IMG/VR virus record: IMGVR_UViG_3300025133_009669 | Span: 1-64,000 of that record | Direction: 5' to 3' (one strand) | Length of the DNA: 64,000 nt | Source: a virus | Part shown: positions 17,877-27,446 of the stretch, one piece after another | Position numbering within the stretch: position 1 is the stretch's first letter | How the letters are laid out: the number at the start of each line of letters is the position of its first letter | Position numbers and translations under genes: made by a program | The notes under the pieces: generated by a model | The model's database searches: none | The model's input: the letters and a program-made list of their open reading frames with translations, nothing else | What the model was told of the DNA's origin: nothing

Positions 17877-18269
17877 ATGACTAATCACTTATTATTGGCT
17901 ATATTCTACTTGGTTATGGCCAACTCCTTGGCATGGTTTCAGGTGAACTTACAGTTCATATCTGAATGGTGGTACAATCGTCCACTTTTTACAATAATTT
18001 CTCTGTCGTTACCAACCACATTCTTTTTTTATTACGGCTGGAGATATTTGGTGGAATTTTACAATCAAGAAGTTTGGACAGCCAGAGTTGTGTCCTTCTC
18101 TATAAGCATTCTTTTATTCTGGATCTTTTCTTCAATTTTTAAATTGCAGCCTATAAATTTAAAAACTGGAATTTGTATAATGCTTTCATTCGCAATAATT
18201 TTAGTTCAGTCATATTGGCCGGACAGCAATCAGGCAATAGAGGTTGTGGATAAAGTTATCAAAAATTAA
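17877..18269 (+). CDS. Small membrane protein (about 4 TM, SMR/EamA-like)
   Basis: Four hydrophobic segments in 130 aa. Confidence 0.55.
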   Translation: MTNHLLLAIFYLVMANSLAWFQVNLQFISEWWYNRPLFTIISLSLPTTFFFYYGWRYLVEFYNQEVWTARVVSFSISILLFWIFSSIFKLQPINLKTGICIMLSFAIILVQSYWPDSNQAIEVVDKVIKN

Positions 18270-19219
18270 TGAAAATAACATTTATAGGGTTTAATCTTGG
18301 CCCAACAAGAGCATTTACAAATGGTCCTGGGATGTCTTTTTATAACTTCTTAACCGCAATACAAGAAGATGTCGAGATAGACGTTTTTACGGTGCTCCCT
18401 GTTGAGGAGAAGATAGGTGGAATAAATTTTTTCTCAATAAATGACACCGCGCAGCTGGCAGGATCAATTGGCTCCTCAGAGGTTCTTCATCATTGGAGCG
18501 GAATTGATAGAAGGTTCGTAAAAATTATAAATGCTGCAAGTTTATTGGGAAAGAAGATAGTTTGTGGCCCAAATGTTCTAGACACAGTGCAAATCGAGAA
18601 AGAGAAGAGCTATCTTTTTGGCTCAGATATAAGTCTTTTTCTGACGACAAACGATAAGCTTAAACATGCTTTGTCCCATCAACACGCAATTCCAATATCT
18701 AAAATAAAAAGCTTTATAGTTGGCCCCGACTTAGATCTATGGAGTCCGGCTGAAAACAGAGGCTCTGGTGGCATATTATGGAAGGGCAATTGCAACCATG
18801 AGGTTAAGGACGTAGATTTCGGCCTAAGGCTGCGAGATGCTTTGCCTCAATATAAGTTCATGTTCCTAGGGCATCCCGCTCCGTATAAATACGAGGAACA
18901 TATTTCTGTGGCCAAAACGGCCAGGGTGTATATAAATACATCGATGTCAGAAACGAAATCCCAAACGCTTATGGAAAGTTGGGCATCTGGAGTCCCGTCA
19001 GTAACACATCCTAAGATTTACTTGCATGGCGTAAATTACAAGACGGGAATTATTACGAATAAAACCATCGCAGATTATGCGGAGGCAATCTGCGAAATTA
19101 TGGAGGACAAAGTTTTGTATTCAGTTCTCTCCGATGGAGCGCTCTCTTACGCCAGAGAGCACCTCTCGAAAGAAGTTATAAGGGCAAGATATTTCTCCCT
19201 ATTAGAAGGCAAGCTATAA
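18269..19219 (+). CDS. Glycosyltransferase, GT4-like
   Basis: NTSMSETKSQTLMESWASGVP (E-x7-E motif). Confidence 0.75.
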   Translation: MKITFIGFNLGPTRAFTNGPGMSFYNFLTAIQEDVEIDVFTVLPVEEKIGGINFFSINDTAQLAGSIGSSEVLHHWSGIDRRFVKIINAASLLGKKIVCGPNVLDTVQIEKEKSYLFGSDISLFLTTNDKLKHALSHQHAIPISKIKSFIVGPDLDLWSPAENRGSGGILWKGNCNHEVKDVDFGLRLRDALPQYKFMFLGHPAPYKYEEHISVAKTARVYINTSMSETKSQTLMESWASGVPSVTHPKIYLHGVNYKTGIITNKTIADYAEAICEIMEDKVLYSVLSDGALSYAREHLSKEVIRARYFSLLEGKL

Positions 19220-19926
19220 TGCTTGTGGATATTATTATTCCGGCGTACAACCCTGGCCCCTATCTGCTTGACGCGCTGAAAAGCTGTACTCGTCAAAAAT
19301 ACAATAATTATACAGTCACTGTGATCGATGACAATTCGACCGAAGATGTAAAGTCAATTGTCGATAAATTTGCGGGATTCAATTATATCAGAAATAATGA
19401 AAACTTGGGCCCTGCAGGCGCTCGCAATGTAGGGATAAGGAATACCAGCGGAGACCTTATCAGTCTTCTGGATGCAGATGACCTGATGCACCCGGACAAG
19501 CTTAAACTCTCAGTAAAAGAGTTTAAGGATCAAGAAGTTGGTCTTGTTTGTGGGAACTATCAGATCCTGGTAAACAGGAAGAGGCTCCTAAGGCCTTTCT
19601 ATAGGAAGCCGGTTAAGATTGACCGCGATGTTTTGATGACGCAAAACTTTGTAGCGTCAGGGTCGACTACCTTTCGACGCACTCTGATCGAAGAAATCGG
19701 AGGGTTTGATGAGCGGTTCTGGATCTCCGAGGATTACGCTTGTTGGATAAGGATGTCTGAGATCTCTAAAATAAAATATATTCATGAAATACTATATTAT
19801 TATGCGGTATCCCCTGGGAATGACTCATTGACGCAGAGGGCAGATATTCAGAAAGATCACGAAAAGAATATAGAGATGATTAGACGAGAATCCAGAGAGA
19901 GAATGAGGATTACAAATGGGTCTTGA
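19219..19926 (+). CDS. Glycosyltransferase family 2
   Basis: IIIPAYN, VIDDNST, NLGPAGARNVG, LLDADD, GGFDE...EDY. Confidence 0.92.
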   Translation: MLVDIIIPAYNPGPYLLDALKSCTRQKYNNYTVTVIDDNSTEDVKSIVDKFAGFNYIRNNENLGPAGARNVGIRNTSGDLISLLDADDLMHPDKLKLSVKEFKDQEVGLVCGNYQILVNRKRLLRPFYRKPVKIDRDVLMTQNFVASGSTTFRRTLIEEIGGFDERFWISEDYACWIRMSEISKIKYIHEILYYYAVSPGNDSLTQRADIQKDHEKNIEMIRRESRERMRITNGS

Positions 19927-22318
19927 TTACAAGAATAAGAACATTCTTATAAAAACGTATCTTTCTGAATCTGGACTGTTTTATCTTGGAAAATCTCTCG
20001 GCAAGCATTTAGAGCGCCATAATAACGTAGTCTTTATGGCTAAGGAAAAATACAAAAAAGATGATCGCGGAATGTTTCGCCGCTTTTATCCCACGCCCTA
20101 TGATGAGGCAGCTTTAGACGGACTGAGTATCGTAAAGGTTAATGCGCGAGACTCAATAGAAGGCCAGGTTCTAAAGGCAATAAAAACACATCGTATAGAT
20201 GTAATTATTTCGTTAGAAACATTCATGAGAAAAGCTCAGTGGGTTCGTAAGGCAAGGATGGCCGGAGTCATCGTATGCGACGTTCCAATGCCAGAGTGGA
20301 CAAGCAAACAGTTTATCGAAAATAATTCTTATTCAATTTTTAATAAAATCCTTTGTCTTACAGAGACTTCATTAAAGGTTTTCTCAAAATACAAGACGGC
20401 TGAGCGATATGAGTGGGATTACGTAGATCGGGAATTGTTCCGTCCCAAAACAACTAAGGCATCGCTTCCAGCACTGACTTTTTATCACCCTGGAGCCTTA
20501 AATCCTGGGTTTTCTCAGAAAAATACAACTCAAGTTTTAGAGGCATTTTCTTCATTCTCTGAGAAGACAAAGGGGGATTATCAGCTGTTGGTAACAGGAA
20601 GGCTTGACGAAAAACAAGCAAATATAGTTAATAAATGCAAGAAAATCATACTAATACCAGAAGTATTAGATAGAGAGAAAGTTGCTGAGTTATATGATGA
20701 ATCCCATTGCCTGATAATCCCCTCTACGAGAGAGGGTCTTGGGCTTAGCTTTTATGAAGCCAAGGCTATGGGGTGCGAAATTATTACTGTAGATGCAGAC
20801 CCGATGAACAAGCACGCGAATTACCTTTCAAAGGTTTTATCGTATAATAAGAATGAAAGTCCCGTTCCATTTGCTGTGACTTCCTCCGAGAATATCGAAG
20901 AACAAATAACGAAATATTATAAGGATCATAAGATGAAAGAGAAAAAGACCCAAGAAGAAATTGAGCATGAAAATAATCAATTACTAGAGGCCTTTGAGGC
21001 TCAGACTGAAGACGCGAGCCCTCAGCCAGATGGTATGGACCCTGCTGTTTTGGCTAAGCTAAAAAGCAAAATGAGCTCTACAACACCCAGCTTGGAGGAA
21101 GAAGTGGATATTGTTAATCAGAGAAAAGTAAGCATAGAGCTTGCTGTAATTGGAGTTGGACAGGCTGGCTCACGAATCGCAGAGGTATTTCACCAGAAAG
21201 GATATGATGTCGGCGTCATTAATACTTCTGAACAAGATCTTGAGTTCATTGATGTTGCGCCAGGACAAAAGCTACTGCTAGAAGGTAGTCTCGGTGGAAC
21301 AGGTAAGGATCTAGATCTCGGAAGAGAGATTTTTGCAGAAAGCGCTGGTCAAATTTCTCCTTTTATTGAGGATGTAATTAGCGGAAACAATATGGCTTAC
21401 CTCGCAATCTCGGGCGGCGGCGGCTCAGGCAGCAGTTCCGTTGATACCCTAGTTCCCATGCTTTACGAGACTGGACTTCCGGTTGGCGTGATATATGTAC
21501 TTCCGAAGGCGACCGAAGATGCGCAATCAAAGAAGAACTCAATAGAAACTCTGTCTAGGCTGGCCAAGCTAACTGCGGATAATATGGTTTCCAACTTAAT
21601 CGTTGTTGATAACGCTAGAATTGAGCAGATTTATGCAAATCTCAGTCAGGCCGACTTCTGGGAGGCCTCAAACAATGCAATTGTAGAGCCGTTACATATT
21701 TTTAACTCACTAACATCTACTGCATCAAGATTTACTTCGTTAGATCCAAGTGATTTCGGAAGAATTATTTCATGTGGAGATTGCTCTATATACGGGGTAA
21801 TGTCAGTTGATGACTATATGGAAGAAACTGCTTTAGCAGAAGCTGTCATTGAGAGTTTGAACTCAAATATGTTGGCATCTGGCTTTGATATTTCGCAAAC
21901 ACGAGCTGGCGGAGTAATCATTACGGGTCCAGAAGAAGTTCTTCGAAAGATTCCAGCGCTAAATATTAATTACTGCTTCCATATGATATCTGAACAAACG
22001 AATGGAGCATCAGTTTATCAGGGTGTTTATGCGGTAGACTCTGACGAAGATTGCGTCAAGATCTATAGCTGGTTTGCCGGGTTAGGCCTTCCTAAGGATC
22101 GCGTTGAAAACCTGAAGAAAGAAAGCATGGAGCATGCTGCCGTAGCCACAGAGAAAGAGAGAAATCGCGCATCGGCAATGACTCTTGATCTTGGTGATGA
22201 CAAGGTGAATACTGTTGCCGAAGAAGTTACGAGGAAAATCCAGAAAAAGAAGTCAAGCTTCAGCCGCCTACAGCGAGGATCAAGGCCTTCTCTTATAGAT
22301 AAAAGAAGGAAGGGTTAA
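19916..22318 (+). CDS. Fusion: N-terminal GT4 glycosyltransferase + C-terminal tubulin/FtsZ-family GTPase
   Basis: GT4 motif PSTREGLGLSFYEAKAMG; tubulin/FtsZ loops VIGVGQAGSRIAE, INTSEQDL, GGTGKD, SGGGGSGSS, VVDNARI, SLDPSDF; one continuous frame; internal AAGGA + in-frame ATG at 20933. Confidence 0.8.
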   Translation: MGLDYKNKNILIKTYLSESGLFYLGKSLGKHLERHNNVVFMAKEKYKKDDRGMFRRFYPTPYDEAALDGLSIVKVNARDSIEGQVLKAIKTHRIDVIISLETFMRKAQWVRKARMAGVIVCDVPMPEWTSKQFIENNSYSIFNKILCLTETSLKVFSKYKTAERYEWDYVDRELFRPKTTKASLPALTFYHPGALNPGFSQKNTTQVLEAFSSFSEKTKGDYQLLVTGRLDEKQANIVNKCKKIILIPEVLDREKVAELYDESHCLIIPSTREGLGLSFYEAKAMGCEIITVDADPMNKHANYLSKVLSYNKNESPVPFAVTSSENIEEQITKYYKDHKMKEKKTQEEIEHENNQLLEAFEAQTEDASPQPDGMDPAVLAKLKSKMSSTTPSLEEEVDIVNQRKVSIELAVIGVGQAGSRIAEVFHQKGYDVGVINTSEQDLEFIDVAPGQKLLLEGSLGGTGKDLDLGREIFAESAGQISPFIEDVISGNNMAYLAISGGGGSGSSSVDTLVPMLYETGLPVGVIYVLPKATEDAQSKKNSIETLSRLAKLTADNMVSNLIVVDNARIEQIYANLSQADFWEASNNAIVEPLHIFNSLTSTASRFTSLDPSDFGRIISCGDCSIYGVMSVDDYMEETALAEAVIESLNSNMLASGFDISQTRAGGVIITGPEEVLRKIPALNINYCFHMISEQTNGASVYQGVYAVDSDEDCVKIYSWFAGLGLPKDRVENLKKESMEHAAVATEKERNRASAMTLDLGDDKVNTVAEEVTRKIQKKKSSFSRLQRGSRPSLIDKRRKG

Positions 22319-22319
22319 C

Positions 22320-23225
22320 ATGGCGATTGACAAGGTTTTTTACAATAGATCTAGCGCGAACTCTTTGGGATGGGAGCCGAGTTGGTTTGGAGCAGAGCAT
22401 TTTGATGAAGACCTTACTTCTAAGGTAAGAAAGTGGCAGCGAGCCAGAGGCTTAGTGGCAGATGGTCTCGTTGGTCCAACTACTTATCGAAGGATTTGGA
22501 CTGAGCGAGAAGAAGAGAGCAATCATCGTCCTATGGAAATTTCGCGTTCTAGCGAAGAGAGCTTTATTGTTCATAATGGTCGGCATATTCCGATAAAATG
22601 GAACAAGGTTATTCGCTGGGATCAGCCAAACGGATTGAGGTCTAATAAGGGCAACTATTATGATTACTCCGGAAAGCCTGATCGAAAGCCTACTTTTTTC
22701 ATAAATCATTGGGATGTATGTCTGTCTTCGGAATCTTGCGCCAAAGTTCTAAATAAAAGAGGTATCTCTGTTCACTTCTGTATCGATAATGACGGCACAA
22801 TCTATCAGCTTTTAGACACTCAGCATGGAGCATGGCACGCAGGAAGCACAGAGGCAAACAAGCGCTCTATTGGAGTTGAGATAAGCAACGCTTATTATCC
22901 CAAATACCAGTCTTGGTATGTGAAGAATGGATTTGGAGAAAGACCCATCAAGAGCGGGGCGCAAGTTCATGGAGGAACATTAGGTGATTTCACATGGTTT
23001 TATCCAGAGCAGATAGCTGCACTAAAGGCTCTTTGGTCAGCAGTCAGTTCGGGACTAGATATCCCATTAGAGTACCCTAAGGATAGCTCTGGAGCCCTGA
23101 GCACAACGGTTCATGAGGAATGTCGAAAGGCAACCTTCCGTGGATTCTGCAACCATTATGATCTGAGCAAGAGAAAGATAGATTGCGCAGGCCTTCTTAT
23201 TGATGAACTAATTGAAGATCTTTGA
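22320..23225 (+). CDS. N-acetylmuramoyl-L-alanine amidase with N-terminal peptidoglycan-binding domain (endolysin-like)
   Basis: WQRARGLVADGLVGPTT (PG_binding_1); SVHFCIDNDGTIYQ...AWHAG...SIGVEISN...HYD...DC (Amidase_2). Confidence 0.85.
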   Translation: MAIDKVFYNRSSANSLGWEPSWFGAEHFDEDLTSKVRKWQRARGLVADGLVGPTTYRRIWTEREEESNHRPMEISRSSEESFIVHNGRHIPIKWNKVIRWDQPNGLRSNKGNYYDYSGKPDRKPTFFINHWDVCLSSESCAKVLNKRGISVHFCIDNDGTIYQLLDTQHGAWHAGSTEANKRSIGVEISNAYYPKYQSWYVKNGFGERPIKSGAQVHGGTLGDFTWFYPEQIAALKALWSAVSSGLDIPLEYPKDSSGALSTTVHEECRKATFRGFCNHYDLSKRKIDCAGLLIDELIEDL

Positions 23226-23279: not shown

Positions 23280-25652
23280 ATGATAGATCTCATATTAAAT
23301 AATATAGACTGTGAAATCCGAGGAGCCATAGACTCTAAGGACGTTAAGGCTTTGGATAAGATCATGAGTTATGATCATCCCGGTTATGCCTTTATGAAAG
23401 GGGCCAGAGGTGGGTATGGAAGCGGCGGCGCTCATGGAGGTTGGGATGGGAAAGTAAGGCTTCTGACGAAAGCCGGAAGATTTCCGATCGGGCTTCTGAG
23501 TATGGCTGAAGCTTTTTTTAAAGAGCATAAGATTGAGTATAAAGTCAAAGATTTAAGGTCAAAGATAAAATATGGACCTGAGATCCCGTTGGTGGTTGGA
23601 GATAAATTTGAAGCCAGAGATTATCAGGATAAGGCGATTGTTAAGGCTTATAAAGCTGGAAGCGGAATTATAAAAATGGCCACAGGCTGTCATGCAAAAG
23701 GAACTAAGGTTCTTATGTATGATGGGTCAACGAAGAAAGTAGAAGATATAGTCCCCGGAGATCAGGTTATGGGCCCTGATTCGAAGCCTAGGGCCGTGCT
23801 AGAGCTTTGTCGCGGTAGAGATAGGATGGTAAAAATAATACCCACAAAAGGGCAGCCCTTTACTATCAATCAAGAGCATATACTATCCTTAAAGCGAACT
23901 AAGAGAAAAGCTGGGGATAAGTTCGCCGGAAATATAGAGGATATAAGCTTCTCTGACTGGGAGAAGCTAACTCCCTATGGAAAGCATATTAGAAAGCTAT
24001 ATAGAGTTGGCATAGAATTTCCTAAAAAAGATTTACCTATAGAGCCATATTTTCTGGGATTATCTCTGGAAAATGGAGATCTTGATTTATCTACAGGCAC
24101 TACTCCTGGGAGTAAGTTTATACCGAATAAATACAAGACCTCAAATCGAGAAGATAGACTTCAAGTATTGGCAGGCCTTATAGACGCAGGCGGCCATTAT
24201 AATGGAAGGATTTATGATTATGCATCTAAATCTAAAGAATTAGTTAATGACATAGCATTTATATCAAGAAGCCTAGGTTTAGCTGCATACATAACAAAGC
24301 AGGACAAAATTTGTATGAGCAATGACGTTGCAGGGCGTTATAGGGTAACGATTTCTGGAGATCTAGACATTATTCCCTGCAGGTTGCCCAGAAAAATTGC
24401 AAATCCAAGAAGGCAGAAGAAAAATGTATTAGTTACTGGCTTCAAGTATGAGGAGGCTGGCGAGGATGACTACTTTGGATTCAAAGTAGATTCCGATAAT
24501 AGGTATTTGCTGGAAGACTTTACCGTTACTCATAATTCTGGAAAAAGCTTTACAATTGCTTCGTTAGTCGCAAAATATAATATACCAACTGTAGTTTACG
24601 TTATTGGAATCGAACTTCTTTATCAAATGAAAGAAACAATTGAGGCCTCTTATGGAATAGAGTGCGGAATTGTTGGCGGTGGAGAATGTGACACATCAAA
24701 GGCGGTAACTATTATGACTATTTGGTCTGCTGCCGCTGCATTTAATAAGAAGATTAAGATAACAGATAACGATACAACTGGAGACTCCAAAAAGCATACA
24801 GATAAGCTTAACAAAGAGATGGTTAGGAAGCGAGTTCAAGAAGCTCAGCTTTTCATCTTTGATGAATGCCAATATGCAGCATCAGAAACTCTTCAGTTTC
24901 TTCATAAGGCTAGCGTGTCCGCAAGACATAGGTTCTTGTTCTCGGGAACGCCCTGGAGAGATACTGGCGATGATATTCTGATCGAAGCAGTTTCAGGCCC
25001 CAGGATAGTTGACGTTAGCGCTACCTTTTTGATCGAAAAGGGATATCTCGTTCAGCCAAAGATTTACTTTTTAGACGTACCAGTGATGAGAGGAGTAGGC
25101 AAGACTTACCATGATGTCTATAAGAATTACGTTGTAGAAAATGAAGATAGAAATGATCTAATTATAAAAGCAGCAAAGCAGTTAGTGAGGCAGGGCAAGA
25201 AGGTGCTCATTCTTGTTGTTCGTGTAGGTCACGGAAATATTCTTTTAGAGAAGCTGCAAGATGATTTCCGGATAAAGTTTTTAGATGGAACAAAGTCCTC
25301 AAAGCTAAGGATGGAGTCGATAGAGGAGATGAAGGCCGGCAAGCTCGACATAATGATAGCCTCCAAGATCTTCGATCAGGGGGTTGACATTCCAGATCTT
25401 GACGCCTTAATTCTTGCCGGCTCAGGAAAGTCCTCTGGTCGGGCCTTGCAGAGGATTGGTCGAGTAATTAGAAAAGCGGATGGAAAGAAAAAGGCCATTG
25501 TTGTTGAGTTTTTTGATAACTGTAAGTACTTAAGAGATCATTCTGAAGCAAGAATAAAAGTTTATAGAAGCGAATCAGGATTTGATATTAAGAGGCAGAA
25601 GAATAAGGCTCCAATGACCTATCCGAAACGTGCCCCAGTAAAATGGGTTTAG
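23280..25652 (+). CDS. Superfamily 2 DNA/RNA helicase (UvsW/XPB-like) containing an intein
   Basis: RDYQ, Walker A restored as ATG|SGKS after splicing, DECQ, SGTP, DQGVDIP, QRIGRVIR. Confidence 0.88.
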   Translation: MIDLILNNIDCEIRGAIDSKDVKALDKIMSYDHPGYAFMKGARGGYGSGGAHGGWDGKVRLLTKAGRFPIGLLSMAEAFFKEHKIEYKVKDLRSKIKYGPEIPLVVGDKFEARDYQDKAIVKAYKAGSGIIKMATGCHAKGTKVLMYDGSTKKVEDIVPGDQVMGPDSKPRAVLELCRGRDRMVKIIPTKGQPFTINQEHILSLKRTKRKAGDKFAGNIEDISFSDWEKLTPYGKHIRKLYRVGIEFPKKDLPIEPYFLGLSLENGDLDLSTGTTPGSKFIPNKYKTSNREDRLQVLAGLIDAGGHYNGRIYDYASKSKELVNDIAFISRSLGLAAYITKQDKICMSNDVAGRYRVTISGDLDIIPCRLPRKIANPRRQKKNVLVTGFKYEEAGEDDYFGFKVDSDNRYLLEDFTVTHNSGKSFTIASLVAKYNIPTVVYVIGIELLYQMKETIEASYGIECGIVGGGECDTSKAVTIMTIWSAAAAFNKKIKITDNDTTGDSKKHTDKLNKEMVRKRVQEAQLFIFDECQYAASETLQFLHKASVSARHRFLFSGTPWRDTGDDILIEAVSGPRIVDVSATFLIEKGYLVQPKIYFLDVPVMRGVGKTYHDVYKNYVVENEDRNDLIIKAAKQLVRQGKKVLILVVRVGHGNILLEKLQDDFRIKFLDGTKSSKLRMESIEEMKAGKLDIMIASKIFDQGVDIPDLDALILAGSGKSSGRALQRIGRVIRKADGKKKAIVVEFFDNCKYLRDHSEARIKVYRSESGFDIKRQKNKAPMTYPKRAPVKWV
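23688..24536 (+). mobile_element. Intein (283 aa) in the helicase Walker A motif, with a degenerate LAGLIDADG endonuclease
   Basis: Starts CHAKGTKVLMYDG, block B TINQEHIL, LAGLIDAGG, ends FTVTHN followed by Ser. Confidence 0.92.
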
Positions 25653-26342: not shown

Positions 26343-26785
26343 AGGAAAAGAAAACTCTAGAAAATATGGAGGTGACCCTCTATATGGACGGAGGTTGGGA
26401 AGTCTCTGGAAAGGTGGAAAAGGTAGACCCCGATAAATTTATTATCGAAAGCAATGGCTCTCTCGTTATGGCCTTTAGAGATAAAATCTCATGCTTGGCA
26501 GTCTCTGAAGGACAGAGGGCAGCCAAGCCAGGGCCCGCTGTTCAATTCCAGCAAAAGAAGGACGAGCAACCAGAGGACTTAGAAGGCCCCTTTCCGATGA
26601 ATGGTCTAATGTATGATGAGACCTCTATGTCTATTCCTGCTACTCTTCTTGGCAAGTCTAGGGCTCAATTTGATTCTGATGATGACTTATCTGTCTTTTA
26701 TCCAGGCGGAGCAGGGATCTCTGATTCAAAGGATGGCTCTAGCTCTAATATCTCTTTCGGAATAGAAGATGATTCCGAAGAATAA
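26339..26785 (+). CDS. Hfq/Sm-like fold protein with acidic C-terminal tail
   Basis: VTLYMDGGWEVSGKVEKVDPDKFIIESNGSLVMAFRDKISCL aligns by eye with Hfq Sm1/Sm2 (VSIYLVNGIKLQGQIESFD...MVYKHAISTV). Confidence 0.55.
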   Translation: MKEKKTLENMEVTLYMDGGWEVSGKVEKVDPDKFIIESNGSLVMAFRDKISCLAVSEGQRAAKPGPAVQFQQKKDEQPEDLEGPFPMNGLMYDETSMSIPATLLGKSRAQFDSDDDLSVFYPGGAGISDSKDGSSSNISFGIEDDSEE

Positions 26786-27446
26786 GCTGGACAGAATAAA
26801 GGAAAAGGTATTGGCGGAATGCGATAGCTGCTCCAGAGAGGGGTGCCCTAGGTGCTTGTCTAAGGCGTCAAGGCTTGACCGATACTATATTGCGGATATT
26901 CCTGTGGAATATTGGTCGCTTTCTTTCAGGGATTTTGCCGGTGATCCGAACTTTAAAGCCTTAATAAAAGAAAAGATGAAGAATATAGACTCCCTATATG
27001 ATTCGGGTAAATCTTTTATGTTCGCTGGAAATCTTGGAACCGGAAAAACGTATACCGCATGTTGCATCTTAAAAAGGGCTGTGAGCACAGGCTATTCTGG
27101 CCTTTATACTACAATGGCAGATGTTGTAGCAAATATGTTATCTCGCGAAATTGATACTTCAAGATATTATGCAGAATTAACTGGAAAGGACTTCTTGGTT
27201 ATTGATGAATTTAGTTCACATTGGATCTTTCCATCAGAAAAAGCAGAGCAACTATTCGGGACTTCAATAGAGTATGTCTTAAGAACTAGGTTTCAAAATC
27301 AGCTACCAACGATACTGTGTACAAACGATAGCGATGTAGACAAGATCTTTGGAGGCTTTAACGCTAAGTCATTTAAATCACTACGCAGTCATCATGTAGA
27401 ATTTTTCGTCGTAGGCGGAAAAGATCATAGGAGAAAGAATGCTTGA
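26769..27446 (+). CDS. DnaC/IstB-like AAA+ helicase loader
   Basis: CxxC...CxxC zinc site, GNLGTGKT, LVIDEF, RTRFQNQLPTILCTN, GKDHR. Confidence 0.82.
   Translation: MIPKNKLDRIKEKVLAECDSCSREGCPRCLSKASRLDRYYIADIPVEYWSLSFRDFAGDPNFKALIKEKMKNIDSLYDSGKSFMFAGNLGTGKTYTACCILKRAVSTGYSGLYTTMADVVANMLSREIDTSRYYAELTGKDFLVIDEFSSHWIFPSEKAEQLFGTSIEYVLRTRFQNQLPTILCTNDSDVDKIFGGFNAKSFKSLRSHHVEFFVVGGKDHRRKNA

Follow-up and report, generated by a model that had tools for sequence, protein, structure and literature searches.

Known phage tubulins serve as motors of the spindle or of partition (PhuZ, TubZ); the tail of TubZ contacts TubR, and that of PhuZ is acidic. The consensus tubulin loops include T1 (G-x-G-x-x-G) and a GGGTG(S/T)G-like T4. 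Separately, gene 4A/4B of phage T7 and infB of E. coli each give two in-frame isoforms by way of an internal Shine–Dalgarno (SD) sequence and ATG. Here we describe a gene that bears comparison with all of these. It lies in a 64,000-nucleotide stretch of viral DNA (hereafter the window; positions 1 to 64,000 of IMG/VR record IMGVR_UViG_3300025133_009669, an 87-kb virus contig fragment rated 26% complete by CheckV), and it joins a GT4-type glycosyltransferase (GT) to a TubZ-like tubulin in one open reading frame (ORF), with the tubulin's own start site retained at the junction. The gene has the following features:

19916–22318, + strand: GT4-tubulin ORF, 800 amino acids (aa), ~89.0 kDa, ATG start; GT4, linker, tubulin, and basic tail
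19916–20932, + strand: GT4-type GT-B glycosyltransferase domain, aa 1–339, with two Rossmann halves
20732–20758, + strand: E-x7-E motif EGLGLSFYE, aa 273–281 (E273, E281), read in the sequence
20921–20925, + strand: SD-like AAGGA, 7 nt before the internal ATG, in codons K336–D337
20933–22318, + strand: predicted free tubulin from Met340, 461 aa, ~50.0 kDa; ATG at 20933–20935, in frame
20933–21130, + strand: acidic N-terminal extension of the tubulin, or linker, aa 340–405 (66 aa); isoelectric point (pI) 4.5, low model confidence
21131–22150, + strand: tubulin/FtsZ core, aa 406–745; GTPase domain, C-terminal domain, and the beginning of the long C-terminal helix
21152–21172, + strand: T1 loop GVGQAGS, aa 413–419, read in the sequence
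21413–21433, + strand: T4 signature GGGGSGS, aa 500–506, read in the sequence
21740–21757, + strand: T7 loop LDPSDF, aa 609–614, read in the sequence and aligned to M. jannaschii FtsZ
22151–22315, + strand: basic C-terminal tail, aa 746–800, conserved; pI 12.0 over the last 30 aa

An initial annotation of the window had described an 800-aa frame made up of a GT4 domain with an E-x7-E motif, an acidic linker, a tubulin GTPase, and a basic tail; ORF prediction, Pfam, and direct reading found every motif in its place. The ORF overlaps the 3′ end of a GT2 gene by 11 nt at its start and is preceded by GAGGA. Pfam Glycos_transf_1 (PF00534) matches aa 200–343 (E 1e-13; 51.6 bits against a cut-off of 26.4), and Glyco_trans_1_4 also matches the protein (E 5.6e-11). 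E273, E281, and K202 are invariant in 11/11 fused and split GT domains, and the E-x7-E glutamates in 49/49 fused proteins. Pfam Tubulin (PF00091) matches aa 409–573 (E 2.3e-10; 41.5 bits against a gathering cut-off of 33). Further tubulin motifs can be read at aa 436–438 (NTS), 460–465 (GGTGKD), and 565–566 (DN), and these three, together with the T1, T3, T4, and T7 loops, are invariant among 49 fused homologs. D610 and D613 of the T7 loop align with both Asp residues of M. jannaschii FtsZ N-V-D-F-A-D (N-x-D-x-x-D in FtsZ). In the tubulin/FtsZ superfamily, acidic residues of this loop serve to complete the active site of the neighbor. With catalytic-type GT4 residues in one half and GTPase loops in the other, both parts of the fused frame look intact.

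Outside the two domains, conservation is seen in the linker helices (E-N-x-x-L-x-x-A-F at aa 352–360 and V-L-x-x-L-K-x-K at aa 378–385) and in the tail. The K/R-rich tail, with conserved S-x-F and D-(K/R)-R-R, is common to the GT4 clade and to distant tubulins without GT4; its conservation suggests a conserved partner, or contact with DNA or membrane.

An artifact of assembly or sequencing, or a one-off stop loss in this contig, has next to no chance of accounting for the fusion. Contigs from runs X1 (word depth 1175), X4 (45), and X8 (6.3) span positions 20920–20935 with no other letters and no gaps, and nothing was found in favor of an artifact, although these three full-length runs may belong to the source campaign. 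The identical 800-aa protein is present on 13 contigs, the longest of 309,051 bases. Among the best 120 of 281 homologs passing an E value of 1e-3, 81 carry in-frame GT sequence ahead of the junction (250 or more GT residues in 74, cut fragments in 7) at 50–83% identity, and 39 begin at the junction. At the DNA level, 96 loci were compared (the window, 15 viral loci, and 80 metagenome loci); once 16 duplicates and 14 loci without motif or anchor were dropped, 66 distinct junctions remained, of which 42 are fused and 24 split. The split set comprises 14 junctions with GT4 directly upstream, five with no GT4 within at least 1.4 kb, and five with too little upstream DNA. Split relatives thus exist, and a stop codon near 20920 in relatives had been named at the outset as the mark of a one-off loss; yet 42 distinct fused junctions, from many projects, mean that the fusion is no one-off. 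These data confirm that the GT4-tubulin fusion is real and conserved.

In agreement with the initial annotation, which knew of no described GT-tubulin fusion, no description of one was found in the parts of the literature searched, including PMC7824862, PMC9123017, PMC12619734, and PMC13282480; supplementary tables, such as those of domain architectures (PMC7824862) or genes (PMC9123017), could hold one. An enzyme welded to a phage tubulin, with a retained internal start, therefore appears new within that literature. Ten long homologs among 150 listed were also scanned, and none has a GT fused to tubulin: eight contain inteins, another joins TubZ to PilM/FtsA, and the tenth consists of the tubulin domain alone. 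In the eight (P0139, P0147, P0149, P0177, P0182, P0210, P0244, and P0261; 795–983 aa), an intein with a homing endonuclease lies inside the GTPase domain. The tubulin–actin-family fusion (P0225, 818 aa) joins a TubZ-like tubulin at aa 9–333 to a PilM/FtsA-type actin-fold domain at aa 516–791.

The arrangement of related loci points to how the fused frame arose. GT4 lies immediately upstream of tubulin in 15/15 viral loci, eight of them fused and seven split. In the split loci L009, L011/L012, L014, L015, and L016 (five distinct viral overlaps), the GT gene stops 8–23 nt past the tubulin ATG and in a different frame; in the remaining split locus, L010, a gap separates the GT4 and tubulin genes. 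Junctions differ among loci by one-base shifts. Given the overlap in split relatives and these one-base shifts, the gene is, on comparison of its junctions, a conserved frame-merge of two neighboring phage genes, with Met340 as the tubulin's own start. In split relatives, the SD sequence and ATG of the tubulin sit within the final GT4 codons in a different frame, and one-base indels have brought the GT4 and tubulin frames into register in many lineages. No canonical slippery heptamer was apparent as a programmed frameshifting signal in the overlaps of split relatives, and the frame offsets vary by lineage.

The same comparison bears on a neutral explanation, in which the merge would be an accident eased by overlap and tolerated thanks to the long linker and the continued production of free tubulin from the internal start; the GT4 part would serve the glycan pathway, the tubulin part would position DNA or particles, and tethering would have no role of its own. 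One-base indels are enough to produce such merges, and 14 distinct split GT4/tubulin junctions persist alongside the 42 fused ones. The position upstream of tubulin, at the edge of a glycan island, is otherwise occupied by varied genes (epimerase-like, GT25, or UDP-glucose dehydrogenase then NUDIX), resembling an insertion hot-spot. On a tree of the tubulin part, built with FastTree only and without outgroup rooting, so that the direction of fusion or fission is read solely from the GT4-less wider family, the fused/split label changes at least six times, as accident would allow; however, 33 changes are expected from shuffled labels and 0/500 shuffles were as low, a strong clustering of state that argues against neutrality. 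The fused frame also remains open at 50% protein identity, and the GT4 clade stands apart in its tight overlap or fusion: where GT4 is absent (65 distinct loci, each required to have an upstream frame of 150 aa or more), the median gap before tubulin is 38 nt, and only 7/65 overlap. Finally, GT4 was never found apart from tubulin, either in the 15 viral loci or in five GT4-less relatives searched for an orthologue, three of them 100% complete. On balance, we consider a purely neutral merge unlikely, though a serious alternative.

Conservation at the junction extends to the internal start site, which the initial annotation had recognized as AAGGA at 20921–20925 followed by an in-frame ATG at 20933. 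Met occupies the Met340 column in 78/81 fused proteins, and the other three have Met within a few positions; the surrounding region is poorly conserved linker, and stand-alone relatives begin at the Met340 column. An in-frame ATG stands behind an SD core (GAGG, AGGA, or GGAG) in 42/42 fused junctions, at a spacing of 7–8 nt (4–5 nt in L004), and an SD core precedes the ATG in 22/24 split junctions. The codon bearing the SD core across the 42 fused junctions is GAG in 30, AAG in nine, and GGA in three (Glu, Lys, and Gly, respectively), and never GAA or AAA. The background frequency within these frames is 0.48 for GAG among Glu codons and 0.45 for AAG among Lys codons, and at eight invariant Glu/Lys positions taken as controls both synonyms occur, the A-ending one at 21–57%.

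Predicted RNA structure is also low at the site. The 80-nt window on the internal ATG has a minimum free energy of −0.3 kcal/mol, against a gene mean of −14.1, and ranks first of 233 as the least structured. Among 40 of the 42 fused loci (two with a frame of less than 1800 nt were omitted), the internal site falls within the least-structured 5% in 29/40 and within the least-structured 10% in 37/40. Taken singly, the site in the window would mean little: 5-mer SDs ahead of internal in-frame ATGs are no rarity there (9/264), and the weight therefore rests on conservation across relatives rather than on this single copy. SD sites precede 25/38 genes of the window.

It could be supposed that the 800-aa fusion is the sole product, in which case the internal SD and ATG would be a relic or owe their conservation to something other than initiation. 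Elongating ribosomes can occlude internal sites, and the Y-Y-(E/K)-D sequence belongs to the last GT helix and could be kept as protein. However, 42/42 junctions preserve the purine core and the G-ending synonym even though the SD codon may specify Glu, Lys, or Gly; Met is retained within a poorly conserved linker; and no part of the mRNA is less structured than this site. A fusion-only gene is accordingly quite improbable. The internal ribosome-binding site and ATG are, as the comparison of fused and split junctions indicates, a retained tubulin start maintained by nucleotide-level selection. The kept SD, the codon bias, and the low structure at Met340 make two products likely, and we consider it probable that ribosomes start at both ATGs, yielding an 89-kDa GT4-tubulin (89.0 kDa) and a 50-kDa free tubulin (50.0 kDa). 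The suggestion in the initial annotation that a free tubulin of about 461 aa is made beside the 800-aa fusion thus appears well founded. In having a second ribosome-binding site inside one frame, with a short product that would be the C-terminal part, the gene resembles T7 gene 4A/4B and E. coli infB; it differs from them in that the internal site appears to be the start of a formerly separate gene and the isoforms would differ by a whole enzyme domain.

Structure prediction, as proposed in the initial annotation, returned both a GT-B/GT4 fold and a TubZ-like fold. An AlphaFold2 (AF2) model of the whole protein, built on 49 fused homologs, has a predicted local distance difference test (pLDDT) score of ~90 over aa 1–343, mostly low scores with two short helices over aa 344–405, 57–88 over aa 406–745, and a disordered tail. 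Modeled alone, the GT domain reaches a pLDDT of 90.5 and a predicted template modeling (TM) score of 0.87. Foldseek matched this domain best to the GT4 enzyme BshA (2jjm, 3mbo) and a chlorovirus GT (3oy2), over 328–451 alignment columns, and also to GlgM, MshA, and PimA; a profile search of the PDB recovered BshA at 8e-11. The GT-B fold, Glycos_transf_1 match, and E-x7-E motif are shared with GT4 retaining enzymes such as BshA, MshA, PimA, and the chlorovirus NY2A GT (3oy2). Unlike these, the phage GT4 is covalently joined to, or translationally overlapped with, a cytoskeletal GTPase, and it is only 12–16% identical to any solved GT.

The tubulin part is TubZ-like, not PhuZ-like. Its best PDB sequence match is RepX/TubZ (4ei7; E 1.5e-16, aa 399–734), and the best Foldseek matches of the whole model are TubZ-Bt of B. 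thuringiensis and TubZ-Bc of B. cereus (E ~5e-21; target TM 0.72–0.79), with FtsZ and CetZ ranking after TubZ. The window protein has no listed match to the TubZ-type C-terminal domain PF22453 at E values up to 1; the domain is precomputed for many relatives and present in distant homologs. With the type III partition proteins TubZ/RepX of Bacillus plasmids (pBtoxis, pXO1-like; 2xka, 2xkb, 3m89, 4ei7), the phage tubulin shares intact T1, T4, and T7 loops and a basic flexible tail, and it has a putative long C-terminal helix, modeled at aa 727–757; it differs in its low identity (~18–21%), its 66-aa acidic N-terminal extension, and the GT fusion. The carriers differ as well: TubZ/RepX are found on low-copy plasmids, and GT4-tubulin on lytic-type phage genomes of roughly 300–400 kb. 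No TubR-like gene adjoins the tubulin, whose flanks are GT2/GT4 and Amidase_2, and no small DNA-binding neighbor was seen in the related loci scanned (a scan of loci only); on that feature, therefore, the locus does not join the TubZRC partition systems.

The searches did not bear out a kinship with PhuZ, which the initial annotation had cited together with TubZ. The PHROG match to "tubulin PhuZ" is weak (phrog_4733, E 5.9e-5), and PhuZ chains are absent from the 60 best PDB sequence matches and from the Foldseek matches listed. A tblastn search of 50,697 phage records found no PhuZ at E values up to 1e-5, its sole match being Bacillus phage G gp138 at 24.7% identity, which has no GT neighbor; blastn of the gene against the phage records gave zero matches. 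PhuZ, the spindle tubulin of the nucleus-forming Chimalliviridae phages 201phi2-1 and phiKZ, is likewise a tubulin encoded by a jumbo phage, but the tail of the present protein is basic. A single-sequence search with the shell protein phiKZ gp054 (chimallin), which makes for a weak negative, found no shell gene in 5/5 related records, four of them 94–100% complete. Given no kinship to PhuZ and no phiKZ-type shell found, the parallel with capsid trafficking by PhuZ remains an analogy only.

The carriers of the fused and split genes are one clade of uncultured marine jumbo phages, with complete relatives of 316–395 kb. The GT4 gene closes a glycan-biosynthesis island and directly precedes the TubZ-like tubulin gene; in the window the upstream island includes GlmS, GDP-mannose 4,6-dehydratase, epimerases, UDP-glucose dehydrogenase, GT2, and a GT1-like protein. 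The immediate neighbors are:

18269–19219, + strand: GT1-like gene, upstream; conserved ahead of the GT4-tubulin pair in 12/15 related viral loci
19219–19926, + strand: GT2 gene, directly upstream; conserved in 13/15 related viral loci
22320–23225, + strand: Amidase_2 + PG_binding_1 gene, directly downstream; in 6/15 related viral loci

The initial annotation had placed the gene at the end of a glycan island and ahead of an amidase. This is so in the window; since only 6/15 related loci carry the amidase gene, it is no fixed partner.

Other genes nearby have features of their own. Between a cupin gene and the GT1-like gene, a 130-aa protein (17877–18269, + strand) without a Pfam match looks hydrophobic and membrane-like by eye; it is present in 2/15 related viral loci (L007, L008). 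The downstream UvsW-like helicase (23280–25652, + strand) contains an intein of ~280 aa (aa ~137–415) with Hint and LAGLIDADG homing-endonuclease domains; three of the 15 related viral loci match across it, 11 match the flanks only, abutting, and one is cut. Related loci also conserve an IstB-like ATPase further downstream (26769–27446, + strand; Pfam IstB_IS21, E 1.5e-7).

The tubulin belongs to a much wider family, with 1407 representatives at E values up to 1e-3 and 155 at up to 1e-30. Across 80 viral loci of this family (L019–L098), retrieved with a profile of distant members, the tubulin gene marks the 3′ border of a variable glycan island, with an epimerase/dehydratase-like gene upstream in 68/80 loci and GT2 in 42/80; downstream are a UvsW-like helicase (69/80) and a GH25 lysozyme (21/80). 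GT4 is present in 7/80 loci, all on marine-clade contigs. Among near relatives without GT4, the gene upstream of tubulin is GT25, UDP-glucose dehydrogenase with NUDIX, or an epimerase-like gene.

Together, these features suggest a dual-product gene, and we lean toward a reading in which the short product forms TubZ-like filaments and the long product co-assembles with them, holding GT4 by way of the flexible linker. A more specific version is tentative, if quite possible: free tubulin would build TubZ-like filaments in a GTP-dependent manner, the long isoform would join the filament through its tubulin part, and the 66-aa flexible linker would keep the GT4 domain at the filament surface, which would localize the final step of the glycan pathway that the island encodes. 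The initial annotation went further, supposing that the fusion might be the minority isoform and might glycosylate capsids or host division proteins. Complex prediction between the GT (aa 1–339) and tubulin (aa 340–800) parts, from 49-row alignments, scored 0.00 against a mark of 0.32, a result that says nothing either way on binding.

Several observations weigh against the dual-product, co-assembling reading. None of the sequencing runs listed as containing the sequence is an RNA run, which says nothing about expression either way. The junction sequences are related, so the SD and codon counts cannot be read as tallies of independent events, an objection that the control sites answer in part; and a Lys/Glu-rich, A-rich linker alone would lower predicted RNA structure. 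That the fused/split state changes at least six times on the tubulin tree implies that the fusion is dispensable in some lineages. The 73/80 wider-family loci without GT4 further indicate that the tubulin's core job needs no such enzyme, and even close relatives with a 61% identical tubulin (L154, L156, L157) are without it. The linker motif E-N-x-x-L-x-x-A-F, found in 118/120 clade proteins and in 1/64 outside tubulins from viral loci and 1/64 distant representatives, was considered as a GT-docking peptide and rejected, a looser form being present in the metagenome loci L158, L165, L169, L172, and L176, which have no GT4 for at least 1.4 kb upstream.

A broader proposal, which we regard as doubtful, is that the tubulin of the whole family is the scaffold of a phage glycan factory rather than a motor that positions DNA or a nucleus. 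Family-wide, the tubulin gene comes last in a variable sugar-nucleotide/glycosyltransferase island, and in the marine clade the terminal GT4 is overlapped with or welded to it; filaments would carry a glycan-finishing enzyme that might act, for instance, on virions moving past or, ahead of lysis, on the cell envelope. If true, this would be a viral counterpart to cytoskeleton-guided cell-wall synthesis.

The locus amounts to a natural gene-fusion experiment, in which the same pair of genes is overlapped and fused in close relatives and the old start is kept under selection. If the long isoform does ride the filament, it would provide a natural example of a biosynthetic enzyme being placed by a bacterial-type cytoskeleton, and it would tie together the large glycan islands and the tubulin genes of huge marine phages, which are usually treated apart.

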